64,000 nucleotides of DNA from Stegostoma tigrinum (GCF_030684315.1 NC_081369.1:9400035-9464034); one strand, 5' to 3'. Positions 2,575 to 63,643 are shown, counted from the stretch's first letter. The notes: generated from the sequence alone by a model not told the origin. Numbers and translations are program-made.

Positions 2575-3091
2575 CAGTCTGTTGGTGAGAGGAGTAAATG
2601 GGCGTGTGCATGTGCTTGATGAAGGGGTTGCTTGCATATTTTGCTTCGTTCAAGTTTAACCCTTCCGTTCTGAGGTAGCTGGCCGAAAAGTATCAAGGGT
2701 TACGGTGGCGTTACCAGGTATTTTGAATTGGTATTGAGGAAATTCCACGTTGGGTGGAGGTGGGGGTACTCCAGTGTGTGCAGCTTTTGTGAAGCATTAG
2801 GTGTGAAAATCTTCTGTCTGGAGTTAGCACAACACACTCGTGAGTAAAGGAATTTTGGCTGGAAAACACAGTTCGTTCCTTTTTCTTTCTTAGTACACCC
2901 CGAGGCACCTATTGCTGTCACAAAAAAACGTAAACATTGACTTCAGTTACAGATAAAAAAAATTCAGTGTGTGCTACAAAATAAAACCGCTGTTATTTCT
3001 GCTTCCAACGCATATCATGATCTGTAGATCTTGCCTACCAACTCAGCATTGAAACCACAAGACATGCAAGCGTGATGGTGAATGATTGCAC
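2575..3091 (-). pseudogene. Possible leader + V-domain relic on the minus strand
   Basis: Leader-like VQSFTITLACLVVSMLS with donor TG|GTAGGC, a 124-nt intron, acceptor tttgtgacag, then fragments CVFQPKFLY, VVLT, HW, GNATVTLDT and ASYLRTEGLNLNEA in shifting frames. Confidence 0.3.
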
Positions 3092-3526
3092 TTCACATGA
3101 GCTTGAGAGAGTGAAAAAAAAAGTGATCGCCCTGGCCCTGCCGTCCAGCTCAAACCAGCCGGGGATCTGTTGCTCAGCTGGGGTTAGGTTCAAACTATCA
3201 GTACGTCCCAAGAAACACAACTTCACCCTATTCTCACCTTGATCCTTCCTTGTACAGGTACATGTCTTCAATTCAACAATTGCTAGATGGAAAAAGCTGT
3301 AAAATGTGTAGGTGATATTAACTATGTATGGGCATGACTATTTATGCTGATGTTGCGACAAGCTCTTTATGGAGTTTCTGGCCTTTCAGTGGAAGGGATA
3401 CATCTGTGCAATCATAACTGCTGCTCCTGAGCCCTAGTTGTTCCCTTGTTTGCTGCTACAAGTTCCCGACACTCTGTCGTTCTCTTGTAAATAAATGTTT
3501 CGTATTTTTGTTTGTTTTGGCAACAG

Positions 3527-3814
3527 TTGCCGCTCGTATGACTCAATTTCTGCGATCGCCCAATGTAACAGTAAGACAGACCGTGACTTTTCACTGCTCG
3601 TTGCTGCTATTCCGAGGTAGGAACCAAGTCGTGGTGCATTGGTGGAAAGCTGGTGACCAGGAATTCTTGAACTCAAAACAAGATTCCTGGAGAGTGTTTC
3701 ACATTGAGAACGAAGCCAGCGCAAACCCACAATGTGCGTTTTAGAAATGTTGGCATCTGTTATTGCAGTTTGAACAGACTGGAAATGGAATCGGCATACA
3801 GCTGAATGTAAGCG
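3527..3814 (+). pseudogene. Frameshifted VJ-type Ig V exon (paralogue 1)
   Basis: Acceptor ttttggcaacag; RMTQ...QTVTFHCSL...VVHWWKAGDQ...FHIENEASA / NVRFRNVGICYCSL / TGNGIGIQLNVS read across two frameshifts; donor decayed to G|GAGAGT. Possible decayed leader at 3344-3396. Confidence 0.85.
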
Positions 3815-3823
3815 GAGAGTAAT

Positions 3824-4100
3824 CAACCCCAGCGACTTTGAAAATACGGCAGTTAGATGGACAGGAAGTTTGAAATGGCAGCTCTTCTGCTAATGATAAT
3901 GCAAATGATTATTAATTTCTCCCCTATTACGGTAGGCTGAGAGAACACCCAGTGTGCAGCGGGCTAATGTATATGGAAAGGTGGAACAGCTTGGGTGCAG
4001 CATTCCCCAACATTACTCAGTGGCCGCAGGAAGTTGGCGCTCTTGTTGCTAAAATTTCAAATCGAAAAACTAGATGTTCAGCAATTGTCAGTGCAAAGCA
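3824..4100 (+). pseudogene. Possible decayed C1 exon remnant abutting the V pseudo-exon
   Basis: (A)TPATLKIRQ resembles the intact C1 start APVPLKITP; FSPITVG* and SGLMY fragments follow. The end coordinate is approximate. Confidence 0.35.
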
Positions 4101-6618
4101 AGAGGGGAAGTTGGCTACCACATGCTTCTGCTTAAGCTGCTATTTCGAAATCTTATACCGCTGGTAGTCAAATGCATTTTTCAAAATGTACAACTCACAG
4201 CCTTCTCTGACTCACAATTCGAATTGTGATCTTAAATTAAGTGACCCATTATCGCCCACCATCCACCCAGTGAAATCGCCAACTTATTCCAGACCATCCT
4301 TTACATGAGAATGAAACCCGCGACTTTCGAATACAATTCAAACATTTCATTGCTAACCCCTTGTTGGGGATGTCCGAAATGAAAGTCACACACTTACCAA
4401 TACCACAGCTAGATGTCTGCGGATCAGAATTATTTGAAACCCTTAGCGTTCAACATTCCATCAGTTTTGCAAGAAAAGTTGAAAAGATTTCTGCAGGTTG
4501 GCGGCTTCGATAAATCCACTCACGTTGAATTATGCAATCCTGCATCCGAACCATTCTGCAAGAGGGAGGGAAGGAAACATACATACGAAGTTCGTGAGAT
4601 CGTGAAAAATTCGGTTTCTTGCCAAGGAAACATTTAACAGAGTTAGAAAAACAGAAGCGAGAATAAGCGGTATTGTTAAAACCCAAACAAATAACCTGGG
4701 CGCGGCGGGTGAAGACTATTTGATTTTATTTTTTTCTCTCGTTGTGACCATAGAAACAAATGGAGATTTTCTTTTTTCTCTTGTTGGGTATCTGGAGCGA
4801 AATGTTTTTTTTAATTTCTCAACGTGTCACTCCAGCTAGCCAGCTATATTATTCTCAGGAATTCATAGGAAACATACACAGGAACATGAAGGAGTTTCAA
4901 AGTAATTATGGCCAGATTATGGCAATCAGACAATCTTGGTTATTGCTCACTTCTTGACCATCAAGCATCGACTATATGAACTGTACCTGTCGCTCTGCTG
5001 TCTTGATTTCATTTTTTAACCTGGATTTGCATCTTGGCGCAGGATCCAACATGGTTCGTGTAACACCAAGTGTAACGATTCAATTACTCTTTGTATGGCC
5101 AAAATACAATAACGAACCTCTGTGCTCACTTTGCATCTGTCCCAAGTAGCATTGTAATTGAGATTATCCATTTAACGCAACTGCAAAAATTCAGAAAATC
5201 TTCCTGTCACTCTTAACTGTTATTGTGAAATATTGAAGAAACCGTACTCCATTGACTGCCCAAAGCTGTGTGTTAAAGTAGTCATTTGACCAAACACAGA
5301 GATTATACGTGAGAGAATTGCCTCTTTAACTAAAGGTATAAACACTATTTGAAGCCTTGCTGAAGCCGTCATTTTGGGAGTGACAATTATGGGTGAGTCG
5401 TCCTGTGTGAGAAGGGTTTGCAAGTCTTTAGTTCTTAAGAAGGCATCACTGGACTCGAAACATCAAATGGTGCCAAACCAGTTGAGTTTCGCCAGCAATG
5501 TCTTCTTTTGCTTCAGATCTTTGGCATTCACAGTTCTTTGTTTTGTTTATTTAAAGTTTTCTTCACCACATGCGAGCGTTTCTGCATGTGTTGTCAGTGA
5601 AACACCAATTGGATGGGCTTCAAATCTCGGTTGTTTTTTTTAGAAAAGAAATCTTCAGGGTCGTAGCACATAGCATTCCAATCAGAATATTTAGTACCTA
5701 AATGACAAAAATGTTTAACCATACAGCTTCCAGTCAAATATGCAGTCATTCCAGATTTGCAGCAATTCAGAATGTTCAACTCTAACCACATTTTTCACAG
5801 CATTTCAAAGCTTGAATGAATTGAACAGTTCAAATGACCAGGCAATGATTAGGGAAGAAAGATCAAGAACTGATTTTGAGAACTTGTAGTTTTAATCATC
5901 ACGATCAAGCTGGCTATTTCATTTGTGATACACACCTTTTGGTGTGTATTTTTTATATAAGCTGACAACTAGTTTTTCTTTTCACTCCCATAATACGTTT
6001 TGATGCTGGTGTCTCTTAAAATACTGTCAGTACAATGTCTGGAAGCTAACCATATCAAATTCACCCATCATTAAATTGCAGGATCTGATCAGATTATCCA
6101 GGCTTCAGTATTTCCATTTTATTGGCAGGATTGGAATGTATATAATTAATAGTATCAGTAATCAGCCCAATAATTCATCTCTTGTCCATGGTTCCAAGCT
6201 ATTGTTTCATCGAAGAATGTTTTGCATTGCTGAGAGTGTAGCTTGCAAAGCCTAGAATTTGCATAGATGCAATGGGGAAATAGACTGTTCAGCTCCCCTA
6301 GATATTGTTAAATGTAAGGACGTAAAAAGCAGAAACTGCTGCATAGCATTTAATGCTACAATTCTTTTCAATATCCATTCATTCCTTTGGTCCCACTGAG
6401 ATTATTGATCTCAATCTTGACTAAATTCAACAAATGGACATCCACGACCCCTAGGATTCGAAACTGTCTGGCCTTTGATCAGAGATCACAGCCATGGGGA
6501 ATACTTTCCAATCTAACCATTCCCTCAAAATATTTTGCATGTTTCAATTAGATCAACTCTAAATCTTGCCAATTCTGGGCAGTAAAGGAGCAATTTGCAC
6601 AAACTTTTCAAAGGACAG

Positions 6619-6791
6619 AGATAGTAGAAACTGCCAGTTCTGGAGAATCTGAGATAACACGGTGTGAAGCTGGATGAACACAGCAGGCCAAGCAGCTTCA
6701 GAGGAGTCGGAAATTTTGACATTTCGGGTCTCGACGCTCCTCTGATGCTGCTTGACCTGCTGTGTTCATCCAGCCTCACGCCATGTTAGCT
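6619..6791. mobile_element. Palindromic Penelope-derived short element, family A, with 15-bp TSD
   Basis: Inverted arms gctggatgaacacagcagg/cctgctgtgttcatccagc; TSD CTTTTCAAAGGACAG at 6604-6618 and 6792-6806. Confidence 0.88.
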
Positions 6792-8169
6792 CTTTTCAAA
6801 GGACAGTTGCCTTCCCTTGTGAGCCCTAGAGTCTTTCTTTGAGTAAGATGGCCAAAGCTGTATGCAGTACCTCAGGTCCGAGCTGATCAGTGCCCTTTGT
6901 AGCTGTGGGAAGGCATTTTTATTTCAGACTTAATTAAATAATTGAATTTAAATCCATACTTTTGTATAATCTGTCCTAACTTAGTTGTCTGCTTTGGCTA
7001 TTACACGAGCTGCCTGCTTGAAGTACGAATCTCAGAAGATGAGAACAGAGAGGCACAACAAATAATTGACATAATAATTTGTAATAAGTGGCAATTAAAA
7101 AAAAATAAAACAGCACAGGCTACGGGTAACTGAGAAATGCTGTCTTCCTATCCATTCAAATTCTTTCAAGTCACAAAAATGCACTATGTAATTGAAATCA
7201 GTGGATGGTGCTCCTTTATGAGATTTAGTGTGTAAATATCGTTGCCATACACTAATCACAGTAGCATAAGCAAACAGGAACAATCAGCTTTAATGTTTGA
7301 TTGCACTTACTATTACAGGATTAAGATTTAATAATTTAGCAAGCAAAAGGTAAAATAAATTCCCAGTTACAATAGCCATGTGTTTTCTTACCTTTCCCAT
7401 GATCTTCTAAAGCTATTTGGCAAGTCCATATCAGTAGTTATAGAACATAGAATAATACAGCGCAGAATGTCCTTAAATTTTAAATTAATTTAGACAGAAT
7501 CTGTCATCAGAGATTTAAGACACAGAAGCTCTGAAACATAATGTGGTCCCTCAAGGAATTGTAAAGGATTCCTTGATCTTTTTATAAACAAGAGCAGAGG
7601 AAGTCTCGCAGTGTCCTGGCCACCACATTTCTCTCAACTCATCTTGTTGAGGCAAATGAACGTACTTTTATCCAGGTGAATGCTCTGGAAAAGAACATTT
7701 TCTTTATTTGAGCATTGAATACATCCAATTCAAATATGATGCGGATAATATCAAAAGCGTAACTGTCTTACCTCCATCTTTAGAAAAGTGCCATCATCAA
7801 AGCATTAACTCACCAGTTTTTTTCACTGCTGTTCATGTGGAATGTGTAAATTTTAAAACAAATCAATTGCTATGCTAATTGTTTTGGTGCACAGCATACA
7901 GGAGCTAGAATCAAATGTTCAAACCCATAACTCGGCTACTTAAAGAGGAAGTTCACGGATTTGAAGTTGTAGCCTGGTCCATATTGGAATATTGAATATC
8001 TGATGTGTTTTTGTACAGGCAGTTTATACTGCTTATACTTCACAACATCATCTGTATAGTGCCATCAGTACAAACTGGGATATTGAAGTTCATTAAGCAC
8101 CTGTCGATCTAAAACATGATCATTTTCCTTCTAAAATTAAATTTCTTTTTTTTTGTGTGCCTCTTGCAG

Positions 8170-8284
8170 ATTGTAGTCCCAATGCATCCATTCTTTGCCG
8201 GACGTACTTCTGTGTAGCAACATCTTTCTTATTACTGATTAGTCTTGCACATTTACAGTAGTTGTAAATGCTGAAAATATAAAG
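8170..8284 (+). pseudogene. Decayed transmembrane exon (paralogue 1)
   Basis: Strong acceptor tgtgcctcttgcag and donor AAG|GTAAGA. Phase-1 translation DCSPNASILCRTYFCVATSFLLLISLA, then a frameshift and stops. Size (115 nt) matches the intact TM exon (113 nt). Confidence 0.65.
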
Positions 8285-9329
8285 GTAAGACAGGCGTATA
8301 GTTACATTAATAGTTGGATTTCTAGACCTAATATTAATGAGTAATGTAAATACACAAATGATATCAAGTAGAAAAGTCACTTGAAACTAAAATTAATCTG
8401 CAGTAACTCATTTTTGGAAACAAATGCATTCCTTAACCTTGTAGTTCACATTCAATTCAACTTATTTTTGAGTTCATCAGAGTATAACATTACTGTTGTA
8501 AACATCAAGAACATCCAGATTAGATGAGCGCATTTACAGGCAGAGAAAAGTTCCTCCCACAGTCTGCACTGATATCATACAACTCAAAGGGTCAGAATTC
8601 CAGGTGCCGATGCAGGCAAGATTAGTCGTGGGAAACGCAGATGACTTGTCAGTTTTAGAGTTCCACTAGATTACATTGCTATTTCTCAAGTAAATGTAGT
8701 GCTAAAGTAAGTGGAAAAATGTAAACCTTCAATAAACAATAAGAACACTAGAACTAGGGGCAGTCATAGGCCATCTGGTTTGTATGGCCTGCTTTGCCAC
8801 TCAATAGAATTATGACATATCTTGATTTTTTACTTTATCTTTCTGGTAGTTCACCTAATAGCTTGATTCCATGAAACACCAAAAATCTAGCTTTAAACAT
8901 TTTTGAAGATGCCACACCCACAACCCTCTGGGAAGAAAATTCCCAATATTCAAAACCCATACTGAGGAATCACTATGGGAAACAGCCCGTTTAAAATTTA
9001 TGCAAACGGAGAGCTAGGCACAGAACTCTTCCATCACCTACAAATGCATTCATCTTAAAGTAGCCATGTACAGGGATAGTAATAATGAGTTGTATCCTAA
9101 CGTTAGGCTGGGCAGCTTTTGCTACCTACATGCAATTCAGGCCTATGATAAGATGGTAACATAGTATAGAGAACATTGCAGGCAGCATCACGACAAATTA
9201 GTTTGCTATCATACGAGAGAGTAATACTTTCATGGAGAGATTCCGCAGAATGCTTGTGGTACAGAAGGTTCTGAGTTTTTGTATGTACGAATCAAAAATA
9301 ATTAACACACGGATACAAAGATAATTAGA

Positions 9330-9980
9330 ATGTTCTCCCTTATTGTGAGAAGTGTGGAGTGTAAAAGTAGAGGCATGTTCTGTAGTTGTGCAAGCCATTG
9401 GTGAGACACATCGAGTACCCCGTACAATTTAGTCTCATAACTTAATTAGATGATATTTGCAGTGGTGGAAGTAGAGAGAACATTTATTAGCTTTAATCCT
9501 GATATGTACGGGCTGCCTTGAGATTGAACATTGAGCAAGTTGGATTTGTAGTCATTGGATTTTAAAAAAATGAAATCTGATGTTATTAAATTATGTAAGA
9601 TTCTGGGGTAGTTTACAGAATAGTTGCTGAAAGGATATCACCACAGCAGAGAATCAACAAAAAAGGACAGAGTTTTAAAAGAAATGGGTGTTCCATTTAA
9701 GATTGGCATGTGGAAGATTTGTTTTCTTGTCAGAAGGTAAGTTAATGTTTGGAATCTTTTACTTAGGAAGCTGTGGGGGTCAAATAATTGATTAGACAGA
9801 TTTTTGATGTACAAGCCAGTATGAGGTTAATGTCCATTGTGAGTTGGGTGTGGGGCATAGTGATTGTAATCAAGCATTGAAGTCATAGACTCAATCAGAT
9901 TAACCTTGATGTTATTGAATAGTACTGCAGGCTTGAAAAACCAAACGGCTTACTCCTTCTCCTATTTCATTTGTTTTTAT
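9330..9980 (+). mobile_element. Highly decayed CR1 3' region
   Basis: Colinear similarity to the CR1 ORF2 C-terminus and 3' UTR. Confidence 0.65.
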
Positions 9981-10334
9981 GAGGGAACGGGTATTTCTAT
10001 TCCCACAATTTGCCTGCAGGCTCATGACATGCCTACAGTTCCATTCTAAAAAAAAATTTCAAACCTTTTATTAATCCCTTTGCCCTAAGCTTTGCCAAAG
10101 GTTTCTAAATGCCTGAAATGGCTTTCCGAACTTTCAAACTTTCCGAATATTTGGCATCAATTGTGACTTTGCACTTAATTCTTCCTTTCAATCTGAGTGC
10201 ATAAATGTTCTCCTTCCACTATTACTTGTCTTTTCCATCTGCTTGACTCTAAACATTCCTGTGAATAGTTATGCAGATAAGTTCACATCAGAACTTTCAA
10301 TGCAAAAGAACGCTTCTTAACACTTCTTAGAACT

Positions 10335-10810
10335 CATGTTGCCAAGTTTGGAGTTTTTGAGCTATTGGGACAGGCTGAATGGCCTGAGGCTATTTTGCCT
10401 GGAGCATTGGAGGTTGAGAGTTGACTTTATAGAAGATTATAAAATCATGAGGGGCATGGATAGAGTAAATAGATAAAGTCTTAACTGCGGAGTGGGGGGA
10501 GTCCAAAACTAGAGGCAATCTGTTTAAGATGAGACGGGAAAGATTTAAAAGGGATGTAAGGGACATCATTTCATGCAGATCATGTGGCTTGTATGGAATG
10601 AACTGTCAGAGGATATGGTAGAGATTGGTCCAATTACAACATTTAAAAGGCATCTGGATGAATACATGAACAGGAGGGTTGAGAGAAATATGTGCCAAAT
10701 GATGGTAAATGGGACTAGATTAATTTAGAATATCTGGTTGGCGTGCAAGTGTTGGACTGAAAGGCCTGTTTCCGTGCTGTTTATTTCTATAACTCCACGA
10801 CTCTATAACT
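10335..10810 (+). mobile_element. CR1 LINE 3' fragment (older)
   Basis: Decayed ORF2 C-terminus plus tail ggactgaaaggcctgtttccgtgctg. Confidence 0.85.
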
Positions 10811-12269
10811 AGGTTTTCTTTTATGCTTCTTGCAATAAACCAAGTCTAGCCTCTTGTTTGATTGTGCAATTCATAGGCCTTCATGCACTGAATTATCTTG
10901 TCACCATTGGTCACTGAGTCTCCCAGAAGTCAGCCCGAAATGTTGCTTTCAAGAAGGTCATTTCCACTTTAAGACTGAATGTATATGTTGCTTTCAGCAG
11001 TTCCTTGTTTTAAATATTATCTTGGATTCATATCAATATAGGCTCCTCTACGTCTAATTATACAGTTCTCTCTTTTTCTACTTCATGTGTGAGATGTGGG
11101 CCTCACTGGATGGCCTATATTATCACCAGTCGCCAGCTGCCCCTGAACTGAATGGTTCACTAAGTATTTTGAACGGAAGTTGAGACTCAACAACATTACC
11201 TAAGATTGTTTGTATTTAAACCTGATTTATTTCAACTTTAGTTCATTTTCAGTTAAAATCTGTGAACTAAAATATCCAATGCTCCATTTATCTTTGGCTC
11301 GTAGCTGAAGCATCTCAAATTGATTATAATTAATGCAGTTTGATTTTCACTTTTGCATGTAATTTTTCTCCTGCATCTATTGTAACTTTCATAACTAATG
11401 AGTTATGGAAGTTACTGCATGATACAAGTATGATGTGTTCTCAATTATGTCACTATATCATAGATATATGTTAATGTTTTATATACACACATCTTTTATT
11501 TACATATTTGTTTATTTTATTGTATATCGGCAGTGTACTGTTAAAATGTCTTAAACTAAGGACATATTTGGAGAAGGTGTACGTTTTTATGAGTTTTCTC
11601 CCTCTTGCATCTGTAGCTTTTAGGGCAATTTATTTAAAAACACGTTGATAAACCTTTCTCCCCCCCCGAATCTCTGTGGTTCATTTGTCCTTTGACTTCA
11701 GTATAGTAGAAGATTGTCAAGGCTAGGTCATTAAGTGCATTCAAGGCTGTGATAAATACATTTTTAATCAGGAAGTGAATTAAAGGTTTGGGTGATGACA
11801 TTAGCTGGCAAGCTTACAATTAACTTGCAGACTCAGGGAATCAATGGGTGGATGGTGATCAAAAGGCCCCTGGTTTTCAATTCACTCATCAGGCTCAAAC
11901 ACACCTGCATTGGGAATAGATAATGCAGCTCCCAGCTGGTGTAGTATAAGTTAGGATTTGAAATGTGTTTGTAGCCAAGTTTTCCAAACAATCAAACAAA
12001 TTATATCAACCTGCTCACTATGTTCTGTTTAATATCTCCCATCGCTGGAGCCAATGAATGGATAGCCAAGCTAGACAACACAATATAAGCTTCTCCCATA
12101 ACATAATAGTAATAGATTTATGGAGAACTGTAAGAGCATTAATCAGTGTATCCTTGATTTATGTTTGTTGAAATCCAAATGCTTTCAGTATACTTTAACA
12201 GCAAATAAGAAGGTTTTATATAACTGTTTCTTTTATACAAACGGTAGCATTTTATATTTTAATGGGATG

Positions 12270-13030
12270 GGAAATCAATAATAAGGCCAACATTTGCAGA
12301 CCAGACCTTTTTGCTCTTGACAAACTTGTAGCATGCCGCATTTCTGTACTTCTGCAGACTATTTGATGTAGATAGGCACACTACTGTTTTTAGGAAATGA
12401 GTTCCAGGATCTCGCCTACCAACAGTGAAGGAATGATGATATAGTTCAAAAGCAGGATGGTGTGAAAAGGAACTTCCAGGCAGTGTTCTCCAGGGTATGA
12501 TACCCAGTCCTTGTTGACCTTAAAAGCTACAAGTTTTTAGTTAGTGAATGTATCTTTCATATAGTACACAATACTGCCAGTGCTGTTTTCTGTGGTGCAC
12601 ATATTATCAATGTCAGGAGGATTGAATATTCGATTTGGTAGAAGACAGGGTTTATTGGCCTGAATGATGACAAACCTCATGAGTGGGAATACTGCAACAT
12701 ACAGCCAGACAAGTGGAGAATATTCCATTACACTTCTGAATTGTGCCATGCAGACTGTGGATGTGCTTTGGGAAATCAGGACGTGAGTTACTTGCTACAG
12801 TCTTCCGGGCTTCTGACTTTCTCTTCCAGCTACGATAATTAAATGGCTGGTGCAGTTAAGTTTCTGGTCAATGCTAACCCCCAGGTTTTTGATGGTAGGA
12901 TATTAGCTGATGCTAATGCCATTGCAGTTCAAAGTGAAATGCTTTGATGCTCTCTTATTGGAGATGGCCATTGCCTGGCATTTGTGTAATAAAAACTGTT
13001 ATTGCCATTTAGAAGTCCAAGTCTGAATGT
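12270..13030 (-). mobile_element. Decayed non-LTR retrotransposon (L2/CR1-group) 3' region
   Basis: Shares sequence (gagttccagg...cagtgaagga...ggatggtgtg) with other decayed copies near 40.3-40.6 kb. Family assignment tentative. Confidence 0.5.
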
Positions 13031-13134
13031 TAGATCTGATAAGATGCTAATGTTACACATTTTAACAAATTAAACATAGTGATACTTGGTTTATAGATTA
13101 ATGTATGAATTCATAATGCAGTTATGCAAACCAA

Positions 13135-13357
13135 GCCGTGTAGAAACTCAGCAGCTCTGGCAGCTTCTGTGGACAGAGAAACAGAGTTAGTGTTTCAAGT
13201 CTGGTATGACTCTTTGGAAGTTCTGAAGGAGAGTCATGTTTGAGTCAAACCATCAACTTCACTTTTTTCACCACAGATGTTTCCAAACCTTCTGAGTTTC
13301 TTCAAGAACTTTTGTTCCCATTCCAAATTCAGCCAGATCCACAGTGTTTTGCTTTTG
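13135..13357. mobile_element. Decayed palindromic family B element
   Basis: Same arm sequences as the 22.7 kb copy, more diverged. Half copies also at 5430-5550 and 28697-28793. Confidence 0.7.
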
Positions 13358-14024
13358 ATTCAAGCTATGCATTGACTGGATTTTCTGTTTTATAATATTC
13401 CACTTAAAAATATTATGTTTATAGTATCTCCACTGCAACATTATTTTAATTTGATATTCTGTATCAATTATCTTTCATGGGGAAGGTTGATTCCCTTATA
13501 ATTTTTTGACTAATTTACTTTTCCATGTTATATCACAGTTAATTAGAAAGAGACTTGGGTACACAATCCACAATGAAATGCCAATGTGAGCAATTGGTTC
13601 AATGCTCAAAATGCCAAAATTCTGTAGTGCATTATAAAGAAAGTCCATCTACTCTGTAAGATGTACTTAAAAGACCCCAGAACAAAATTTTAAGAAGAGC
13701 AGAGATGCTATTCTTAGCGCTCCAATTGATATCTATCAATAGAAATGATGAAAATAGATAAATCACCATCATCTTATTTCTGGTTCAAAAGCAATTCTGT
13801 CGGCAAGTTGACTGTTTGTACTCTTACAATGTTGACTGTGTTTCCAAAATTATTTCATAGGATGTGGAGTACTTTCGGATAAACGCATCCATTCATTATT
13901 TTGACAATGCTAGCACTGCATCTTGATCAACACAGTCAAATACCATTCCAGGTTTTAAAACTGTTGGCATGTTAAATGTGTTCCCTGGATACTCTGTTCA
14001 TATTAATTTTTGTTTTCCTTCCAG

Positions 14025-14320
14025 CTCCCAAATATGATATTCCAAAGACGCAATGCATTTGAAGATCTGCAGCAATAACAGTGAATCTGAAATGCAAAGT
14101 GAAAGGTTGAAATCAAAGCAGTACTCTAGTGCGAGCCGTGAGCTCAGACAAAACATCAAATGTTAACCAACCTGCATCAAAATGTAAGAATCAGTGTAAG
14201 AATAGGAGGGAACTTGTGCATCCCAGATGGTTGAAGAAGAAATCTGAAGTGTATTCCATAACAGCCATAGGTTCTCTTTGCAGAACACCTACATTGTTTT
14301 GAGCAGCATAGTTCATAAGT
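14025..14320 (+). pseudogene. Possible decayed Ig C-type exon
   Basis: Strong acceptor ttttccttccag; AP...TVNLKCKVKG* and a later NTYIVLSSI fragment; several stops. Confidence 0.3.
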
Positions 14321-21515: not shown

Positions 21516-21519
21516 GTCT

Positions 21520-27640: not shown

Positions 27641-27959
27641 ACAAAGCCACTGAACTGATTAAAGCTATTGCCATGTTAATGAGAAAATCAATAAATTTGA
27701 ACAGGATTTGGAAAATGTAGGATAACAAAACAGTTGGGGAAAACAGTGAAAGTTTCTCAAATGATGACTAATTCAGAGGAAATGTGGGAGTGGGGTGTAA
27801 TTAACCTATGCAGAAGGCAAAAACATATCATGTGGATAAAATAGAAAATGATGAGTGAAAGAGCAAAGGTTTTGGAGCAGTTTTCTTAACCTGAAATAAA
27901 AAATTCTGTTAGAGCATTACACAAATGTTTGAAGAAGACAACCTGAAAGCTGATCAGCC

Positions 27960-42123: not shown

Positions 42124-42412
42124 ACAGTCATGATGACTGTGGCAATGTCTGCCAGAATTCTACTGTGATGACTCTCAGCTACCCTCTGATTCACTGTGCT
42201 TCTTTACTGGGTCATGCAGTTTGTCCTGTGGAGGTCTCCTGTGTGGTCATGATGACTGTGCTGATGTGTCCCCGAATTCCACCATGATGACTCTCAGCTG
42301 CTCTCTGATTTGCTGCCCTTCTTCTTCATCTGGCAGAGGGTGTCCTGCGGATGTCTACTAAGCAGTCATGATGACTGTGGGGGTGTCTCCCTGACTTCCA
42401 ATGTGATGACTG
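42124..42412. repeat. 119-bp tandem repeat, about 2.4 copies
   Basis: GTCATGATGACTGTG recurs at 42127, 42246 and 42365, and the intervening sequence aligns. Confidence 0.85.
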
Positions 42413-43426: not shown

Positions 43427-43540
43427 CTAGTGTAGGAATACTACTTCACTTTGGGACTATTGGGAGTGTGGCCACTGGACTAATGTTCCTGGCACTCATG
43501 ATCAATGCTGAAACGTGGTCTCAACTGATGAATAACAATG
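43427..43540 (+). pseudogene. Probable decayed transmembrane exon
   Basis: Acceptor tttcactcttgtag; phase-1 ASVGILLHFGTIGSVATGLMFLALMI, then LKR in a shifted frame; about 114 nt with a degenerate donor. Confidence 0.45.
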
Positions 43541-46189
43541 TTAAGTTCTACTGTACCCTCACCATTTAAATGCAAACTTCAGTGTCAGTGATATCTTCTT
43601 ACCTGAACTGGAAATGAGAATTCAAATGAAAGTTAACATTGATAACGATATTATCTGTCATCAGCGAATGTCAATTATTTTGAAATACAGTTTACGCGAA
43701 TGGTATGATTGCAGAATATTAAAAAAACTTTCATAGCAATATCGATAGTTATTTGTTTGATAAAGATGTCCCTATTGAAAGATGTTAAATTAAGTGTGCC
43801 CTCCTCTACAATCAGTTGCTAACTCATTCTGTTGTGGTTCAAACCCGAAAGTGAAGAAGGACGGGTGTCTGGGAAACGTAAACTGTAAAACAATGCAATA
43901 TCTCAACTTATCCATCTTACAATGCCAACGGGACTGATCTCCCATACTAACTCCAATTCTCTACCTATCTCCATATTTGTTGACACTTTATTCATTTTGT
44001 TGTCGTGTGTTTTGCAAGAAAGTTAAATATTTCTCGTTTATCTCGATGTACCTGTGAGATATTGGCGATGAGGTGATTGGGCAGGACGGGGTTACAGTCA
44101 GAGATTTTTTACGGTCGCCGATGGAATTTAGAATAGAACGGCTGATACTCAAAATAAGCAGTGTCTCATTCGAACATCTACAACTAAGTTAAGGAGAAAC
44201 TTACTTGGTTTGAATATCTACAAACTTGACTACCTCAGCCAGTTGCGTTTGCTCTATTCTTAAATAAATTAAACACTATGATAGAAAATTTCTGAACTTT
44301 CAGGAATTAAAGAATCTGTACTGCGTGGCAGTAACTGCAGCTGAGGTGGAAAACCAGGCATGTTTGCCTGCAGAAGGAGAAACTGTCTTCAGGGGACTTA
44401 TTATCCGGTCTAGGTCTAAACGGTTACTGTGCTGTGTTTGCTCAGTGCAAAACCATTTCAGCCAATAATCAAGAGAAACCTCGGCGAACCTTTCTCTGGA
44501 GCTACAGAGATATCAGGCAGGCTAAGAACCCCCGAAGTTTATGCAATGAAGACGTTCAGCAATGAGATGGTTTTCCTTGGTCCGCAAACGATGCTCTCTT
44601 ATATTTCAAGTAAAATGCAGAACAAAAACCTCCAAGTTGCGATAAGATGCAGCTTTGCAAAACCCTTGTTGCAATCCAGACTTGTCAATCATTTTTGACA
44701 TTGCTTTCACGTTTCATGTGTATTTGCATTCGGGAATATGAGAACTAAGTAATTATTTCAAATATTACTACATTTTATTTATTCCAGGATATGCAAGACA
44801 TAAACAAGAGCTGGCAGATTCTGAAACGGCAACGAATTTTGCTGTAATAGAAATAGTATAACATAGTCATTCCAGAATATTTCAATCTACTGGCTGAAAT
44901 ATCGGTCAGCTGACAGTAACTCTTTCAAACTATGGTGAGAAATGATGGTGCAAGTAATTATTTTTTAATATTTCATGGAAATTTTCCGGGTTACTTAAAG
45001 ATGTGCCGAGGTACTAACTGATTGTTAATAAAACGATGCTTCCTCAGGTTTGAGGAAGCATATCTTAATATTGTAAATTTGCTGCTCATGTCAGTAATAC
45101 TGCCCTCTTGCGTAAACGCTGGCAGTATTATATATTATCTATAGGCAGCACAGTGCTCCAATGATTGCATTTGTGTACACATGTATAGGTTATCGTTTGT
45201 GCGCCTCATCTCAAATTCTTGTCAACTCTTGTTGCAAATTGGTGAAAACCCACAGCTGTATATTTGTATTCTGGCACGTGTAGGGATAATGTACTAAGGC
45301 CGTGCATTTTATTGCATTGGATTTGATCAGAAGCAAGAAGTTATCCCGCCACAAATATGAAGGGGAAAAATACATTTATGCCAAGGTTGATTTATTGGCA
45401 TAGATCACCAACATACGATTAACATTTATGCAAATATGAAGGCAATGGATTCTTGTGGATTGACACTGTTCACAACTGTGGCGTTTTGCAACCCTGCTGA
45501 TAACAACTTCGAAGCACTGCCTAAAGCTGTGAAAATGATAAATTGGGTATATTATTATGAAACATTGGATTTGCAAGAAAGTGCAAAAATTAAGAGAAAT
45601 ATTCGAGAATGTGCCCAATTGTAGATAAACAAGGGAAAGTGGACTACTGACACTGTCCACGTGGAAACAATATAAATGAGTAAAAAACGTATACGCGCAA
45701 ACGTCATTCTATTGTTGTCGATATTTTCTGATCAATATGTTAATGAATGATATTACACAACCTCTTTAGCAGGAGGGACTTGACGCCAAACATCTAGCCC
45801 AGTAGCAGCAATACCGACATTTCTCCACAGGAGATTTTGGCTTTATTTCTGTGTTGTGTCATGTCAACTCAGGTTTGTGAATAGTGGGTGATAACATTCA
45901 ACAGAGATATAAGACATTACATTGATGTCATTACATGGAACGTTATCTACAGTAAAACGAAAATGCATTCAAGTATTTGTTTTATGTTCCGCTAAAGGTT
46001 TTTATGAATGAAAACTTTCTCACAAAATCTACTGCTATAATTTTTATATGAACTGAGTCAATATATTTCTCTGATTGTGGTTTCGCAATACTATGGTATT
46101 ATCTGGTTTGTACAAAGTTCTGAATTCAACAAACACAGAAGCTATGCTACCTGCTAAAAATCAGCATGCTACCTACTGAAAATCAGGGT

Positions 46190-49817: not shown

Positions 49818-49859
49818 AAACGAGATTCCTCGAAGCTCAGCCCTAACCAGGGCAGTAAC

Positions 49860-53522: not shown

Positions 53523-53577
53523 ATGCCAGCGAGGATGATTTTTTTCTGCCTGACACTACTCGAGTTTATTCTTGCTG
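53523..53577 (+). CDS. Signal peptide (leader) exon MPARMIFFCLTLLEFILA
   Basis: ATG, hydrophobic core, phase-1 donor G|GTACTT, and a 166-nt intron before the V exon, as is typical of IgSF leaders. Confidence 0.8.
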
Positions 53578-56500
53578 GTACTTTGGTTTTTGATTCACAG
53601 AACTGCTTTAATTCATTAAAGACTTTCGATGCAGCTCCTCCTTCCATTAAATAATCTTAATTCATCTATCTTGTTAAGAACTTAACTCTCCTATCTTTAT
53701 GCCGAATACGACAGTTAACTATGTTTTATTTTGTTTCTGACAGCTGCGGACCACACTTGTTTTAGGGTTACTCAAATACCTAAAAGAGCAGCTGCGAACA
53801 GACGGGAAGACATTACCTTCTACTGTACATTCTCCATTTGTCAGCAAAGTTCAAAGCCAAATGTAATTTGGTGGAAGCAGGTTGGGAATGAACGTGTTCA
53901 GATTGAAGCCAGTGGTAGACAACAATTTGGATTTGAAAATGAAGCAACAGCGTTCCTTAGCTTGCTGCGCGTTGATATCCAAGATTCTGGACATTATCAC
54001 TGCACGGTGAATTACCAAGGAATCGGTCAAAGAAGCGGAACCCCGTCCCAGCTATTTGTGCGTGGTAAGTGAGAGCGACACTGTCTGAAATAATTTGAAA
54101 TAACAAGATATTTCCTGATCGCTGATTTCACCAATATTGGCGGTTAAATCGTGTCCAGTTATCATTTATACAGGAACCTACCCTTGATATTTCAGTTCCG
54201 TTGAAAAAAAGTAAAATTACACGATCAATATCACCGGTAGAAAACTGAAGCTTTTATAAATATTAACAATTTACGCTGTAATTCTAAAGACAGCCTATAC
54301 ACTATGTGCTTTTTGCCGATATACAAAACTTCCGATGTACATAGGCAACAAGAAACCGCTTTGTCAGGCTATTCGTCCACAATTCTTAGTCCCTGGTATG
54401 TTATTGAAGTCGTGTGACTGCCCGACAATTATTTTTTCTGAGATTGAAGATTCTAGAAATTTATTCTCACATTAATTTCACGTCATAATTTGAAAATCAG
54501 CATGAACTTATTTCATGAGTGAAGGAATCGATGCAAAAGAAACACAGTTTGACAGATACAAGTAGGTACAATCACTGACCTAGAATAAATAAAACAACGC
54601 AGAGAATCTGTAGCAATAACAAATTTGCTGGAAAAGCTCAGCAGGTCTGGCAGCATCTGTGGAGGACAAAACAGAGTTAACGTTTCGGGTCCGGTGACCC
54701 TTCCTCAGAACTTAAAGTTCAACTGATTCAATGTGTTTTGTCAATTGAAATGCCTTGTTTTTGAAATCCGACTGATACAGTGATCTTGGGGTAATCGGCA
54801 ATCTGCAACTTCACCGCCGTTATGCACTTGAGCTTAAAAAAAACACCAGGGCAGACGAGCACAATTTGCTTTGTTCCTTTCTTGTGCGCAAGCTCAATTT
54901 AATTAATTTATTCAAATATGCGACATAAGCATTGCGAAGCATTTTGTAGTTTTGTTCTGCCGAGGAAGGCCAAGTATTGGATTTGATAATTCAAGTAAAA
55001 ATGGATAAAAGCCGCTGCCTGGAGAGCTATTTGTTTCATTAACTGAATGCTTGTGCATAAAATTAAGTTGAGAAGAAACTGCACTTCTGAGCATTGTATT
55101 TCTAGGAAAGCATAGCGTCTGTAAATCAGCCTCAAATTTAACAATTTCTGATTTGTTCCAGTAACTTGGCTTTGTTCAATCTCTGCTTGCAGTTGCTCCA
55201 GTCCCACTGAAAATTACGCCCAAGTTTCACGAAGAAAATTCACTTGTGTCTTTGACCCTTCTGTGTGAAACAGCTGCATTTTATCCGGAGGATTTCACCC
55301 TCGCCTGGTATAAAAACGGCACGAAAACTACAGTCGGTATAAATACGAGCAAGGTGCAGAACAGTGAGGGACTGTATGAAGTATCCAGTTCTTTGGTTGA
55401 TCCTCATCCTCCCTCAAGTAATCTCAAGTATACCTGTGAAATATCTCACATCTCCCTCAAGACGCCTGCTGTTGTAACCCACAGTATTTCCACATTTGGC
55501 GGATTCCAAAAAGGCGAGTTAGTTGCTGTCAGTTTTGTTACGAAATGCATCGTAGAATAGTGCAACGTGTGGGCCTAATCCGCAGTGGTTTCATGGAGAT
55601 GTATTTAAATGTATTATACTAAGTTGACATCTCTGTTGTAAGAGCATCAAAACTTATTTGGTATTCTATTTCTTTGACTTTTGAAATAGTAATTATGTTC
55701 AGAATTGAGCTGATCTATCCATTTGTTTCTTCCTATCATTTTGTCCACGTTCACCTTCTTTGCCCAAGCTATGCCTACCTCTTTGTAGGTTACGTGGCAC
55801 AATCCCTCTTCTGTACCTACACTGGTCCTAAACATCACTTTTTCCTCTGTTACATTGATGACTGCATTGCCATCTCCTTGTGCTCCCATGAGGAGCTCGA
55901 GCAGTTCATCCACTTCACCCACAGACTCCCACAGCTACCTGGAATACACCTCCTCCCACCCACCTTCCTGCAAAAATGCCATTCCCTCCTCCCAATTCCT
56001 TTGTCTCTGCCACATCTGCTCCGAGGATGAGGCATTCCACTCCCGTACATCTCTGATGTCCTCGTTTTTCAAGGATCGCAACTTCCCTGCTCAATGGTTG
56101 AGAATGCCCTCGACGGTGTCTCCCGCATTTCCCACAACTCATCCCTCACACATCCTCCCTGCAAAAACAACCAAAACAGAATCCCCCTCATCCTCATGTA
56201 CCACCTCACCAACCTCCTGATCCAATGCATCATCTTCCGACACTTCCGCCATCTGCAATCCGACCCCACCCTTAAAGACGTTTTTCCCACCCTCATCTGC
56301 TTTTTGGAGGGACCACTCTCTCCATGAATCCCTCGTCCGCTCCACACTCCCCTCCAGCGCTACCACACCGACACTTTTCCCTGCAACCACAGGAAGTGCT
56401 ACACCTGCCCCTACACCTCCCCCTTCACCCTCATCTCAGGTCCCAAGAAGACTATCCACATCAAGCAGATGTTCACCTGCACATCTGCTAATGTGGTATA

Positions 56501-59500
56501 CTGATCCACTGTTCCTGTTGTTGCCTCATCTACATCGGGGAAACCACGCGGAGGCTTGGGGACCACTTTGCAGAACACCTATTCTCAGTTCGCACTAAAC
56601 AACTGCACCTCCCAGTTGCGAATCTTTTCAACTTCCACTCCCGTTCCGCAGGTGACATGTCCATCCTGGGCCTCCTGCAGTGCCGCAACGATGCTACCTG
56701 AAGGTTGCAGGAACAGCGTCCTATATTTCACTTGGGAACCCTGCAGCCCAATGGTATCAATGTGGACTTCACAGGCTTCAAAATCTCCCTCCCCCACTGC
56801 ATCCCCAAACCAGTCACTTTCTGGATTACCCCAATCCAGAAATTGAAGTGGACAGTTGAGAAAATGCTTGTGATATCATTCCTCTAAATTTAAGAAAGCA
56901 TAATTAGTAAGTAAGAAAGCTCGAGAACAACAGTATTTTGATTCATGGGGAATTGACTTATCTCATATTCCTACCTTTCCGAAACAGTCCTTTGTGTTCC
57001 ATAAATTGACAATCTATTCCAGAGATTGATTCAGAATTTGCCATGTTGGATCAAGAATTCACTTCGATATTTAACAGAAATAATCTTTGGCAGTTCAGCT
57101 TTTTCATTGTCCTTGAATAGCGCTGTGCAGTTGAAAGTATCATCACATTTTAAGCAAAGAACTAAAGTGACAATATTTTTAATTTAATGATCACATGCAA
57201 ATAATGTCTTCTTTATCCTGCAGACAGTATCAACAATTCACTGGTCATCTGGCCTTCAGTTCGTTATGTGATTTTCTCGGCGCTTGTTGTAATTCTGTTC
57301 GTGTTTGGGACTACAAAGTACTTGAGGATATCAGAAGTAAGGTCTACTATCAAAGCTTGCTTTTCGCACAGGGCCTGGGTTCATTTGCCATTTCTGGAAA
57401 ACAAGCAGGATACTTATTAGGGATAATTCGAATTGGTTGAAGACTGAAAAATGCAATCATTTTGTTCTTTTTTCCCCCGCAAACGTGGATTGCTCCAAAG
57501 CCACTTAAAAACACAAGAAGGTTCTTGGAAACATGAGTGAACCATTCAGCCCCTTTGGGCCTGTTCTGCCATTCAAAGAGATCATGGTTGATGAATGGCT
57601 TAACTCTATATCCTTGTCCCTAAACACTTTGCTTAACAAAAATAAATCGATCCCAGATTTAAAATTAAAATTAACTTCTATTTGTTGAAAAGTCTTGCAA
57701 ACATGTGCATAGAAGAGCTTCCTCACATCTTTCTTGAATGATCTTGTTGCAAGTTTTAGAGTATGACCACCAGTTCTAGAATCCACAACCAGCAGAAGTA
57801 GTATATGTTACTGACAAAGTGTGAAGAGGGTCTTCGGTCCGCCTCCTCCTCTCTCCCTATTTATTTCAGAACCCTCACCCCATCCCCCTCTCTGATGAAG
57901 GGTCTAGGCCCGAGACATCAGCTTTTGTGCTCCTGAGATGCTGCTTGGCCTGCTGTGCTCATCCAGCTTCACACTTTGTTATTTGGATTCTCCAGCATCT
58001 GCAGTTCCCATTATCACTGATACTATATTACTGACACTCTCTTTTGCTGTTAATGTCGTAAAGCCTTCAATTAGATCATCTCTCAACCTTCTAAATTAGA
58101 GAGAAAATAGTCTTAGTTTGTATAATCCCTCCATGTAATTAAATCCCTAAAGTCCACAATTATCATTCTGGTAATTGTACATCATACTCCTTCCAAGGTC
58201 AATGCACCTTTCCTGTGGTATGCTGCTCAGAACCGTTCACAGCTCACCAAAATGTTTTCAAATGTAAACAATGCTCACGTGTGTTAATTTCCAAAGGCAC
58301 ATTTCAGTTTTCAACATGAGAAATGAAATTTATCACAATAAATATGAAGTAGGTAATTCGATGCTTCTGTCAAGTAATGATTGCTCCTTGAAAGAATGGA
58401 GGATTAATAGCAGATTCTGATGTTGCAACCGTCTGATCTCTGCGAGCAACATAATCAAATGTATTCTGCCTCAACGGAACATTCACATCCTTTCTCTAAT
58501 ACTTTGATTCAGAAAAATGCGCTCATTTTCTGCATGGAAACTGAGTCAATATTTTCATCACTCAATGCAATTATATTTCATTGGTTTGCAGGTAAAGAAG
58601 AATGCACAAGGCAATCAGACTGCCATGTCAATGTGGTAAGTTCATATCATCATCATGCTTGGAGTTTGAAATGTTTGGATCAATGGCAATAATGGAAGAA
58701 ATATACATTAATAATGACAGAACATTTTATATCTATTTATTGAAAGACTATTCATCTGGTATGTGTGTGTTTCAGAGCCAGGTTTGAAGCGCAATTTGTA
58801 CAACTTGTATTACTGATGAAGGTTGGCAAGTGGATCTTCTTTAAAAAAAAACCGTAATCATATCTTTGAGAATGTTGCAAGGTTGAGTCACGTTTTAGGG
58901 TTGAGAACAAATTTACTGTCTAAACCCATTGCATCTAACACTTAACATTATGTTTCAGCATGAATATGAGGAAGTTTGAATTGTTGCATTGAACACTGAG
59001 ATTAACATTGTCTTCATGCAGATATATCTATAATATGGATTCTGCAAGGGATGTCGAGTCTTGGTTAAATATGCTTAGTCCTTGATGTAGAAAATCTTCG
59101 AGACAATGAAAAGGACACTTATTGAAGTGTTGTTCTTGTCCTCACAGGAAGCCATGGCGGAGGTTTCCTGCAATAGACTTAGGCAAAAACAGGAGAACTC
59201 CTAGACATACGTTTGAAATAGAGAAAAACATGCCTATTGAGGTAGGGCGGAGTGGGAGAACACAAAATCAGGATAAAATTGTGATTCAAGATAATAAAAT
59301 GTGAGGCTGGATGAACACAGCAGGCCAAGCAGCATCTCAGGAGCACAAAAGCTAATAAAATGTGAGGCTGGATGAACACAGCAGGCCAAGCAGCATCTCA
59401 GGAGCACAAAAGCTACTTGGCCTGCTGTGTTCATCCAGCCTCACATTTTATTATCTTGGATTCTCCAGCATCTGCAGTTCCCATTATCTCTAAAATTGTG

Positions 59501-59802
59501 ATTCAGCCTGACAATGAAGGCATTTGCTTCTATGGACATTAGCCAAATGTCATTTTGAAGCCTATTTTTGTGTCCTTCTGATTAGTGCTTTGCAGAAAGT
59601 TTATAAAAAAGGCCAATTAATAACATTTCCAAATAATATCTTTACAGCTCTCCATGTTGCTATCGGCAGTAAGATGACATACAGTCCTCTAAAGTTCTCT
59701 GTTTCTGCGAAGAAGGCACAGAGATTGCTTGAGCTGCAGACTGAAAAACAAAACAAAGTAACAGAAGATATCCATGCACAAGCAAGAAATAACAAGGCTT
59801 AA
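53523..59802 (+). CDS. Spliced gene: non-rearranging VJ-C1-TM Ig superfamily receptor (SIRP-like / NCR3-related architecture)
   Basis: Phase-compatible exons 53523-53577, 53744-54064, 55193-55513, 57224-57336 and 58592-58635, followed by either 59148-59304 (336 aa) or 59148-59241 + 59596-59802 (384 aa). Both models are open throughout. Two AATAAA signals at 59895 and 59911. Confidence 0.8.
53744..54064 (+). CDS. Ig V-set domain exon with germline-encoded J-like G strand
   Basis: Acceptor tttctgacag and donor G|GTAAGT, phase 1/1. Motifs FRVTQ, ITFYC, VIWWKQ, AFLSLLRVDIQDSGHYHC, GQRSGTPSQLFVR. Confidence 0.93.
54612..54720 (-). mobile_element. Family B half element in the V-C1 intron
   Basis: ttgctggaaaagctcagcaggtctggcagcatctgtgg...cccttcctcagaac. 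Confidence 0.85.
54675..54712 (-). ncRNA. Minimal type I hammerhead ribozyme (Penelope-type), intact consensus
   Basis: Minus strand AGUU-CUGAGGA-A-GGGUC-ACCG-GACCC-GAAAC-GUU/AACU: both core boxes, 5-bp stem II, 4-bp stem I, and the palindromic AACGUU stem III remnant. Confidence 0.8.
55193..55513 (+). CDS. Ig C1-set domain exon
   Basis: Acceptor ctctgcttgcag. VAPVPLKI...LTLLCETAAFYPEDFTLAWYKNG...GLYEVSSSL...YTCEISHISL contains the C1 hallmarks (CxxxxFYP, W, YxCxxxH). Ends at a GC donor, AAG|GCGAGT. Confidence 0.92.
55755..56812 (+). mobile_element. Penelope-like element fragment (RT + GIY-YIG endonuclease) in the C1-TM intron
   Basis: PSYAYLFVGYV...YIDDC; PTDSHSYLEYTSSHP..CKNAIP.SQFL; LIYIGET.RRL..FAEH; frameshifted. 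Confidence 0.93.
57224..57336 (+). CDS. Transmembrane exon DSINNSLVIWPSVRYVIFSALVVILFVFGTTKYLRISE
   Basis: Acceptor tctttatcctgcag with phase-1 entry matching the C1 exon; hydrophobic stretch followed by basic residues; donor GAA|GTAAGG. Confidence 0.85.
57500..58250 (-). mobile_element. Decayed CR1 3' region in the intron after the TM exon
   Basis: SRTGGHTLKL...FKKDVRK plus 3' UTR; split by a Penelope-derived insertion. Confidence 0.7.
57817..58023 (+). mobile_element. Penelope-derived family A element with about 13-bp TSD
   Basis: TSD TATGTTACTGACA (57804-57816) / TATATTACTGACA (58024-58036); hammerhead core mutated. Confidence 0.85.
58592..58635 (+). CDS. Short (44 nt) cytoplasmic exon
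   Basis: Acceptor ttggtttgcag and donor GTG|GTAAGT. Its length bridges the phase-0 TM donor to the only open frame of the next exon. Confidence 0.6.
59148..59802 (+). CDS. Terminal cytoplasmic exon region, interrupted by a Penelope-derived insertion
   Basis: Acceptor ttcttgtcctcacag; open frame KPWRRFPAIDLGKNRR... The distal segment carries MTYSPL and the decayed motifs IFTAL and IHAQA, stops at 59802, and is followed by polyA signals. Confidence 0.55.
59289..59490. mobile_element. Palindromic family A element with internal 61-bp tandem duplication and 15-bp TSD
   Basis: TSD TAAAATTGTGATTCA at 59274-59288 and 59491-59505; 61-bp unit at 59292-59352 and 59353-59413; ribozyme core deleted. Confidence 0.92.
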
Positions 59803-63639: not shown

Positions 63640-63643
63640 AGCT

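Follow-up and report, generated by a model that had tools for sequence, protein, structure and literature searches.

A 64,000-nucleotide stretch of the zebra shark (Stegostoma tigrinum) genome (GCF_030684315.1 NC_081369.1:9400035-9464034; hereafter the window) carries on its plus strand exons of membrane receptors with immunoglobulin (Ig) domains, and raises the question of whether a living gene is accompanied there by its own recently dead copies. An initial annotation, made from the sequence alone, had read it in that way: one intact gene and two or three dead paralogues, derived by tandem duplication and rapid pseudogenisation. The cluster is real, old and ordinary, and it consists of two pseudogenes, copy A (3203-14240) and copy B (28943-45675), and of gene C (53523-59802), whose tail is damaged or re-wired. 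Quite probably, all three are same-strand members of a shark and ray family of non-rearranging V(J)-C1 membrane receptors, which arose as old tandem duplicates and of which two are broken and died later, independently of each other.

Three genes and the lesions of copies A and B

A family profile was searched against 1.84 billion representative sequences, and 99 clusters at 50% identity were found with E < 1e-30. From 153 proteins, 79 were kept as the set of relatives (ids up to P0095, shorter than 480 aa, excluding P0001 and P0002, which correspond to gene C and to a paralogue of it). Fifty-three of the 79 contain a V and a C1 domain, 57 received a transmembrane (TM) call (two of these false), 31 carry a motif like the immunoreceptor tyrosine-based inhibitory motif (ITIM), and four have a V-TM-tail layout without C1. 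Three tail types occur in the family: tails with tyrosine motifs, short tails combined with an Arg in the TM segment (six relatives), and CxxC tails. The last type defines a subfamily without ITIM (P0050, P0051, P0081, and P0090), in which a basic end takes the place of the tyrosine motifs; cytoplasmic CxxC motifs are known from the tails of CD4 and CD8, and by this analogy the motif is possibly a zinc clasp or a palmitoylation site. Exon phases of the family were inferred from the read-through ends of predicted proteins; these indicate an end in phase 1 for the TM exon and in phase 0 for the spacer and motif exons.

The V pseudo-exons proposed for the plus strand at 3527-3814 and 28943-29258 proved to be real. 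In frameshift-aware scans, a 71-sequence profile scored 163 and 109 on them, against nulls of 38-49, and a profile built from four relatives of other species scored 87 and 66.5, against nulls of 30-43. When the V domain of gene C was used as a lone query it recovered the first (82 versus 41-50; tblastn E 1.7e-5) but not the second (46; E 1.5), so that the check proposed with the initial annotation would by itself have failed for one of the two relics. The V exons of the three genes are 25.4 and 24.8 kb apart, in agreement with the spacing of about 25 kb noted before, and the stop-to-stop list of open reading frames indeed contains only the first part of the copy A exon and nothing of that of copy B. 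The motifs that had been taken as shared held in part: the WW pair is lost from the 29-kb copy as described, but ENEAxA is absent from that copy, and the G strand of gene C is not of GNG type. Of 69 relatives, 65 have a GxG G strand, as does relic A; gene C has GxP.

Copy A retains four exons. Its leader relic (3203-3257, +) has 55 nt like that of gene C, an intact phase-1 GT donor, and ACG at the start codon; nine of 17 residues are identical to the leader of P0050 (score 42 versus a null maximum of 29; 0 of 15 shuffles), a match that is not significant window-wide. The V(J) pseudo-exon (3527-3814, +) follows an AG acceptor, has lost its donor, is about 11 codons shorter than the V exon of gene C, and contains two frameshifts, near 3719 and at 3766-3778; against P0050 it gave a tblastn E of 1e-26, with 57 of 104 columns identical. 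The TM relic (8170-8284, +; 115 nt) has intact splice sites, a +1 frameshift near 8240, and a stop at 8272. It was the best match of the P0050 TM segment in 3830-14000 (49 versus a null maximum of 38; 0 of 4 shuffles) and the top match in the window of the TM profile of its own subfamily (51.6 versus 51.3 in 10 shuffles). Finally, the cytoplasmic exon relic (14025-14240, +; 3' end approximate) encodes a CxxC tail without ITIM, interrupted by stops at 14060 and 14108, and aligns to the tail of P0050 at E 3.3e-5 (54.8 versus a null maximum of 43.6; 22 of 63 residues identical). When the first 64 residues of relic A were used in a word-index search, five candidates came up, none of which was scored. 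Copy A is thus broken by frameshifts, stops, the lost V donor and the loss of C1.

If these lesions were assembly errors, copies A and B could both be alive. Contigs from four short-read runs, representing at most two samples of one study, spanned 2400-6658 without a gap and 6759-9000 with at most one one-base gap, at the intronic position 7261. They showed no indel or substitution inside the copy A V exon and an unchanged copy A TM exon. The lesions of copy A recur in these contigs and are therefore not assembly errors, and the V exon of copy B carries at least four lesions in a gene that has also lost donors. Nothing seen speaks for living copies behind a faulty assembly, which are extremely improbable.

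In copy B, the V(J) pseudo-exon (28943-29258, +) again follows an AG acceptor and has lost its donor, together with the WW pair and the second Cys; it contains frameshifts at about 29042, 29113, and 29166 and a stop at 29210. The TM relic (43427-43540, +; 114 nt) is uncharged, of the ITIM-type class, with an open frame and a donor that reads TT, and was the top match of an 11-sequence type-I TM profile (50.3 versus a null maximum of 49.6 in 30 shuffles). As the initial annotation had it, the two TM relics start exactly at 8170 and 43427 and match in size the 113-nt TM exon of gene C, but no likeness to that exon was found above chance, including at the DNA level. A 3' remnant of the C1 exon (42576-42654, +) lies 772 nt 5' of the TM exon and ends at a phase-1 GC donor like that of gene C. 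Its score of 40.1 was equalled or exceeded in 4 of 40 nulls window-wide, in 1 of 100 for the V-TM interval and in 0 of 100 for the last 3 kb. The DNA-level match is weak when taken alone (36 of 1592 windows score as high), and the stub ends at one of only eight such GC-donor motifs on the plus strand, in the same phase as in gene C. Downstream, a tyrosine-motif (ITIM-type) exon relic (45284-45385, +; 102 nt, phase 0-0) carries a stop in its second codon; it matched several relatives in tblastn at E 0.001-0.02, scoring 46.8 versus a null maximum of 45.1 and locally 68 versus 28. Since the V exon, C1 stub, TM exon, and motif exon are in order, copy B represents one gene of about 17 kb.

Two further copy B exons are less certain. 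A candidate small spacer exon (44788-44828, +) is the best fitting of four acceptor candidates, is not above chance and is absent from the guide alignments. A probable last coding exon relic (45550-45675, +; ends approximate) is weak: it is the second profile peak (45.2, within the null of 33-48) and is locally not significant (7 of 15). No convincing leader match was found in 27000-28942. A hydrophobic segment with an acceptor at 38921-39000 was considered as a TM exon and rejected, as it matched neither TM profile and was not among the peaks; a crude screen for an acceptor followed by a hydrophobic run gave eight candidates per strand, so that it cannot call TM exons by itself. The V-TM interval of copy B also contains a fragment of a long interspersed nuclear element (LINE)-type retroelement with reverse transcriptase (30726-32810, +; RVT_1 E 4e-31 plus repeat matches). 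A tandem repeat (42125-42411; period 119, 2.4 copies) lies just upstream of the C1 stub, where the remaining C1 would be expected, and a 103-base direct repeat of 90% identity (26569-26671 and 28426-28528) lies upstream of the V relic.

Both relics are without most or all of C1, with no trace in copy A and the 3' stub in copy B. C1 profiles in the relic intervals scored 28-42, which is the null level except for the stub, and in the five intervals between known exons the best scores were 28-44. Random decay of the C1 exon of gene C by 20%, with three indels added, still left a score above 50 in all 20 trials, and decay by 30% did so in 15 of 20, whereas the relic V exons score like a V decayed by at most 15%. 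A C1 exon would have been detected under heavier decay than that of the V exons, which indicates that C1 was deleted and not eroded. This loss, with nothing left in copy A and a stub in copy B, would also be expected if both had discarded C1 while still working and had been V-TM receptors, NKp30-like, before they died, a layout shared by the four relatives without C1. However, the stub of copy B with its donor fits a deletion in a dead gene, the closest intact relative of copy A has C1, and the C1-less proteins may be exon-skipped models, given that P0079 and P0075 have their TM and tail in common. We consider this course of events improbable.

The same scans of five intervals revealed no further V or C1 above null, apart from the C1 stub and a peak at 48053. 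This peak scored 43.7, above 10 local shuffles and within the window-wide null, and was rejected. The dead copies therefore number two, instead of the two or three proposed. The C1 profile scans gave no second C1 domain in the window either.

Relationships and age of the V domains

The relation of the relics to gene C was determined from their V domains. Identities to gene C are low, at 21-27% (26 of 95 residues for relic A and 21 of 100 for relic B), and A and B share 20 of 91. In contrast, gene C is identical at 50 of 106 and 48 of 106 positions to Heptranchias and Heterodontus proteins, and relic A at 55 of 95 (58%) to P0050, which belongs to a different subfamily from C. The best identities of relic B to relatives are 34-35%. 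A V tree of 62 rows was calculated, from which family rows with a V region of fewer than 85 or more than 125 residues were omitted. Relic A was sister to the intact P0050 (support 99/92) inside a 100/96 clade. Gene C, P0002, and P0080 fell within one 99/98 clade, which also holds proteins from Heptranchias, Heterodontus, and the ray Hypanus; relic B, on a long branch of 1.12, joined a third group with weak support (95/79). Approximately unbiased (AU) tests on a chosen subset of 31 rows, with a quick tree, rejected A, B, C, and P0002 as one clade (p-AU 1.6e-5), as well as C with A (p 1.4e-4) and C with B (p 0.008). In both analyses the three copies grouped with relatives of other species rather than with each other. 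By these sequence comparisons, copies A and B are not recent duplicates of gene C, and the three V domains belong to separate subfamilies. The position of relic A beside an intact protein also means that the A lineage stayed functional long after the split.

These results bear directly on the proposal that the relics are recent tandem copies of the gene at 53.5 kb that decayed rapidly. Their shared strand, even 25-kb spacing and common family are what recent copying would produce, and a truly recent copy does exist, since P0002, outside the window, is a paralogue 92% identical to gene C in V. However, the identities of 21-27% and the AU test stand against it, the closest intact relative of relic A comes from a different subfamily, whose tail the relic carries, and no intron or flank similarity joins the copies: comparison of the window with itself by blastn listed no match linking exons or flanks of A, B, and C, and the matches within it were read as interspersed repeats and local duplications. 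A recent origin is accordingly very improbable, and the tandem duplication of an intact gene followed by rapid pseudogenisation, as first described, is contradicted. Birth and death in an immune-receptor cluster as such was borne out, as one family occurs on one strand with open and broken genes and with the near-identical P0002 outside the window. P0002 is the recent duplicate of C; copies A and B are old. Provided that the tree is right, their duplications would be older than the shark-ray split, which took place more than 250 million years ago.

Gene C and P0002 differ at nine of 106 V residues and at one of 107 C1 residues (Fisher p 0.01). This contrast suggests that selection on the ligand-binding domain is diversifying or relaxed.

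Gene C and its tail

Gene C had been described as intact, and its outer exons are open. The leader exon (53523-53577, +) is identical to the N-terminus of P0001, a 247-aa S. tigrinum database protein with the automatic name MHC class II beta-like. The V(J) exon (53744-54064, +) is open with the G strand included, has Pro at the GxG position, matches the Pfam I-set and V-set, and is 100% identical to P0001. The C1 exon (55193-55513, +) is open, matches C1-set at E 1.1e-10 and ends in a GC donor. The TM exon (57224-57336, +; 113 nt) is open, has one Arg near its outer end and ends in phase 0, versus phase 1 in relatives. Joined by coordinates, the leader, V, C1, TM, and 44-nt spacer exons form one open frame. 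The spacer exon (58592-58635, +; 32 versus a null maximum of 29, 0 of 15 shuffles) matches relatives in the phase-1 frame and is entered in phase 0, so that, as a consequence of the 113-nt TM exon, it is read out of frame. The next exon, a former tyrosine-motif exon (59148-59241, +; 51 versus a null maximum of 26), has 94 nt versus 102 nt in copy B, and both tyrosines are lost. The last exon (59648-59802, +) matched P0033 at E 2.7e-4 (61.5 versus a null maximum of 47.6), contains one TYxxL motif and is followed by AATAAA at 59895 and 59911. The 59648 acceptor is one base off its frame, and it is read in frame only through a cryptic acceptor at 59596. As the first two phase shifts cancel, the normal splice path stays open for 325 aa, with no tyrosine after the TM exon. 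Among the paths tried, those through canonical acceptors gave 273-325 aa, products of 338 or 384 aa required 59596, and none gave the 336 aa earlier assigned to the intact protein. Judged from the exon frames, gene C is only partly intact, with an open ectodomain and TM and a tail out of family phase. A 46-nt exon at 58776 was tried and discarded, as it had no family match and led to a stop directly after the spacer exon.

The TM exon of gene C is, by alignment, derived from an ITIM-type TM, and its Arg is positioned like that of the six Arg-TM relatives. An Arg-type TM exon was sought in the window with the TM profile and none was found (top score 44, null 38-53). In several groups of close kin (P0025/P0030, P0045/P0019, P0047/P0062/P0065, and P0038/P0048), some members have the Arg short-tail TM type and others the uncharged ITIM-tail type. 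Sister pairs such as P0025/P0030 and P0045/P0019 thus place inhibitory and activating members within shared ectodomain clades, and represent either paired genes or alternative TM exons.

Read-through past the C1 GC donor stops at 55560 and gives a 247-aa form without TM. The database models P0001 and P0002 read through this donor in the same way, and the P0001 model misses the TM and tail exons; besides these two, 11 other listed models stop shortly after C1 and lack a TM, and all of them may represent missed GC-AG introns or soluble forms. The ends of the 11 other models are not conserved, and a conserved secretory tailpiece was therefore rejected. No AATAAA or ATTAAA occurs in the C1-TM intron of gene C. 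The GC donor was at one point considered a lesion, an interpretation dropped since P0002 ends alike and the B stub is also followed by GC. A GC donor after C1 is thus present both in gene C (55514) and in relic B (42655), members of anciently separated subfamilies.

No RNA run was listed for gene C, which speaks neither for nor against its expression. What gene C does at present can be read in four ways. We lean, with reserve, to a surviving membrane receptor that would have lost its inhibitory signal and act as a decoy or, through the Arg, as an activating receptor. That it yields mainly a soluble V-C1 form is rather unlikely, and a tail rescued through the cryptic acceptor is improbable. As unlikely as the soluble form is a young pseudogene whose outer exons are still unhit, which would make all three genes of the cluster dead or dying. 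Three phase faults in the tail (the 113-nt TM exon, the 94-nt motif exon, and the last acceptor one base off) and the loss of both motif tyrosines are in its favor, as are residues that are rare in conserved columns of V: a Pro in place of the Gly of 70 of 73 relatives, a His found in none of 71, and a Gln in place of the Lys of 49 of 67. Nevertheless, the leader, V, C1, and TM exons are open with good splice sites, the difference between C1 (1 of 107) and V (9 of 106) in the comparison with P0002 is not that of uniform decay, the cancelling shifts leave the 325-aa path open (by chance in about one case in three, by a rough estimate), and two AATAAA signals follow the last exon. A bolder combined proposal is that gene C is changing over from an inhibitory role to an activating or decoy one and that the GC donor, shared with the anciently separated copy B, serves as a conserved switch between a membrane and a soluble V-C1 form, by analogy with secreted and membrane immunoglobulin. 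It is based on the shifted ITIM exons, the outer TM Arg and a V divergence from P0002 nine times that of C1, and we regard it as quite unlikely.

Other elements of the window are repeats. Fragments of a long terminal repeat (LTR)-type retroelement lie between A and B on the minus strand (23614-25207; RNase H-like domain, E 3.5e-14), and short interspersed repeats form inverted pairs, up to 99% self-complementary, at 6616-6792, 22692-22898, 59284-59493, 60033-60354, and 63541-63742, one of them in the last intron of gene C.

History of the cluster and its place among immune receptors

The preferred history of three old receptors is as follows. Tandem duplication before sharks and rays split would have made A, B, and C, and unequal crossing-over would have built the array. 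Each subfamily would recognize its own surface ligand through V and signal according to its tail type: tyrosine motifs recruit SH2 phosphatases, and in paired receptors a TM Arg pairs with an adaptor carrying the immunoreceptor tyrosine-based activation motif (ITAM). Copy A, of CxxC type, and copy B, of ITIM type, would have been lost in the zebra-shark lineage, independently and late, B probably before A since B is more decayed. Gene C would descend from an ITIM-type receptor whose tail has since gone out of frame, with loss of the inhibitory output. Relics A and B each keep the exons of their own subfamily in the right order, which supports this history. Beyond the V exons, the leader and tail exon of A, the C1 stub and ITIM-type exon of B, the loss of C1 and the tail shifts of C are all additions to what had first been annotated.

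Several points weigh against this account. The age estimate comes from a 106-column tree with several weak forks and the long branch of B (1.12), and its organism assignment is limited to four relatives, labelled Heptranchias, Heterodontus (two), and Hypanus. A later gathering of the genes would leave the same picture within the window as a tandem origin. The TM, C1-remnant, and ITIM-exon matches are only narrowly above their nulls, the exon phases rest on the read-through ends of predicted proteins and not on genomic DNA, and the short-read check of lesions covers copy A only. As to that tail, the open 338- or 384-aa path through 59596 keeps one tyrosine motif, TYxxL. An Arg is also found at a neighboring TM position in ITIM-class TMs, for instance in P0006, P0034, and P0069, so that the Arg of gene C need not mean activation.

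Automatic names are a poor guide to what these receptors are. Members are called MHC class II beta-like, SIRP-like (two relatives), or tapasin-related; the first name is wrong for P0001, since its first domain is an Ig V/I-set and not an N-terminal peptide-binding domain. Structural comparison gave more general answers. The full profile against the PDB matched SIRP-alpha best (E 1.5e-21), then UrIg2 (2.4e-21) and SIRP-gamma (1.4e-17), with antibody chains close behind. A two-domain model resembled antibody light chains at a template-modelling score of about 0.4 with pLDDT 61, a generic V-C1 fold, and Atlas searches returned generic Ig-family clusters.

SIRPs share with the family a VJ-type V, a C1-set domain and inhibitory and activating tail types. 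However, their ectodomain is V-C1-C1 and their activating TM carries Lys, whereas the family has one C1 and Arg, and the profile score comes mostly from C1 and the end of V. Like the family, shark NCR3/NKp30 has V and J joined in one exon that does not rearrange, a GxG G strand and, in some members, a TM Arg. The NKp30 ectodomain is V-only, in contrast to the C1 exon of gene C and the V and C1 domains of 53 of the 79 relatives. With a V-only profile against the PDB, NKp30 was not among the best 60 of 613 matches, those listed being generic V/I-sets, and the four labelled relatives are not named NCR3-like. Shark NCR3 subtypes, which are said to be defined by Kinlein in 2021, may overlap with the family. 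NCR3 genes are also clustered in sharks, with five rows on white shark chr19 and three on sawfish chr34 in the supplement of PMC10751288.

The scaffold resembles in description that of the PRARP or VJ-C1 genes, which combine a single-exon VJ with C1, TM, and a tail reportedly, from Fu's 2019 work, of ITIM type or of the related switch-motif (ITSM) type; here 31 of 79 relatives have an ITIM-like motif and relic B keeps the exon. The present family differs in being much larger and in having three tail types, a separation made by descriptions only, and gene C differs in that its motifs are lost on the normal splice path. PRARP genes (Fu 2019; Ohta 2019) are cited in PMC10751288. UrIg and UrIg2 are likewise elasmobranch non-rearranging VJ-C1 genes, according to PMC12227049, but UrIg2 is antibody-like with a V-C1-C2-C3 layout, unlike the single C1, TM, and signaling tails found here. 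Rearranging Ig and T-cell receptor genes have V and J as separate segments, whereas the V exon of gene C continues through the G strand as far as a phase-1 donor, an observation made without a scan for recombination signals. The KIR, NITR, and LILR clusters are also tandem arrays with pseudogenes, in which activating or tail-less members come from ITIM ancestors. They are built from different Ig domain sets, and the neighbors here are paralogues of great age, not young and almost identical copies. Taken by analogy, the family probably works like SIRP/KIR-type paired receptors on a PRARP-like VJ-C1 scaffold.

A counterpart in basal bony fish is possible, by name only: in the supplement of PMC10751288, reedfish chr12 has at 7.6-11.7 Mb a series of genes under the automatic names tapasin-related-like and SIRP-alpha-like, labels also borne by relatives of this family, and none of these names occurs in the sheet for the sawfish MHC chromosome. 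Our literature search found no description of the family, although papers on shark NCR3 and PRARP (Kinlein 2021, Ohta 2019, Janes 2023, Fu 2019) may hold one.

Pseudogenes are expected in immune-receptor arrays, and the pattern of this cluster is ordinary. Its interest lies in the family, which is large and stands under misleading automatic names; as VJ-C1 genes that do not rearrange, its members are relevant to how antigen receptors originated, a question treated in PMC12227049 and PMC10751288. With gene C and its twin P0002, tail loss in an inhibitory receptor becomes open to test. If the combined proposal of a switch in function and in membrane or soluble form were true, the family would be a large undescribed paired-receptor system on an antigen-receptor-like VJ-C1 module.

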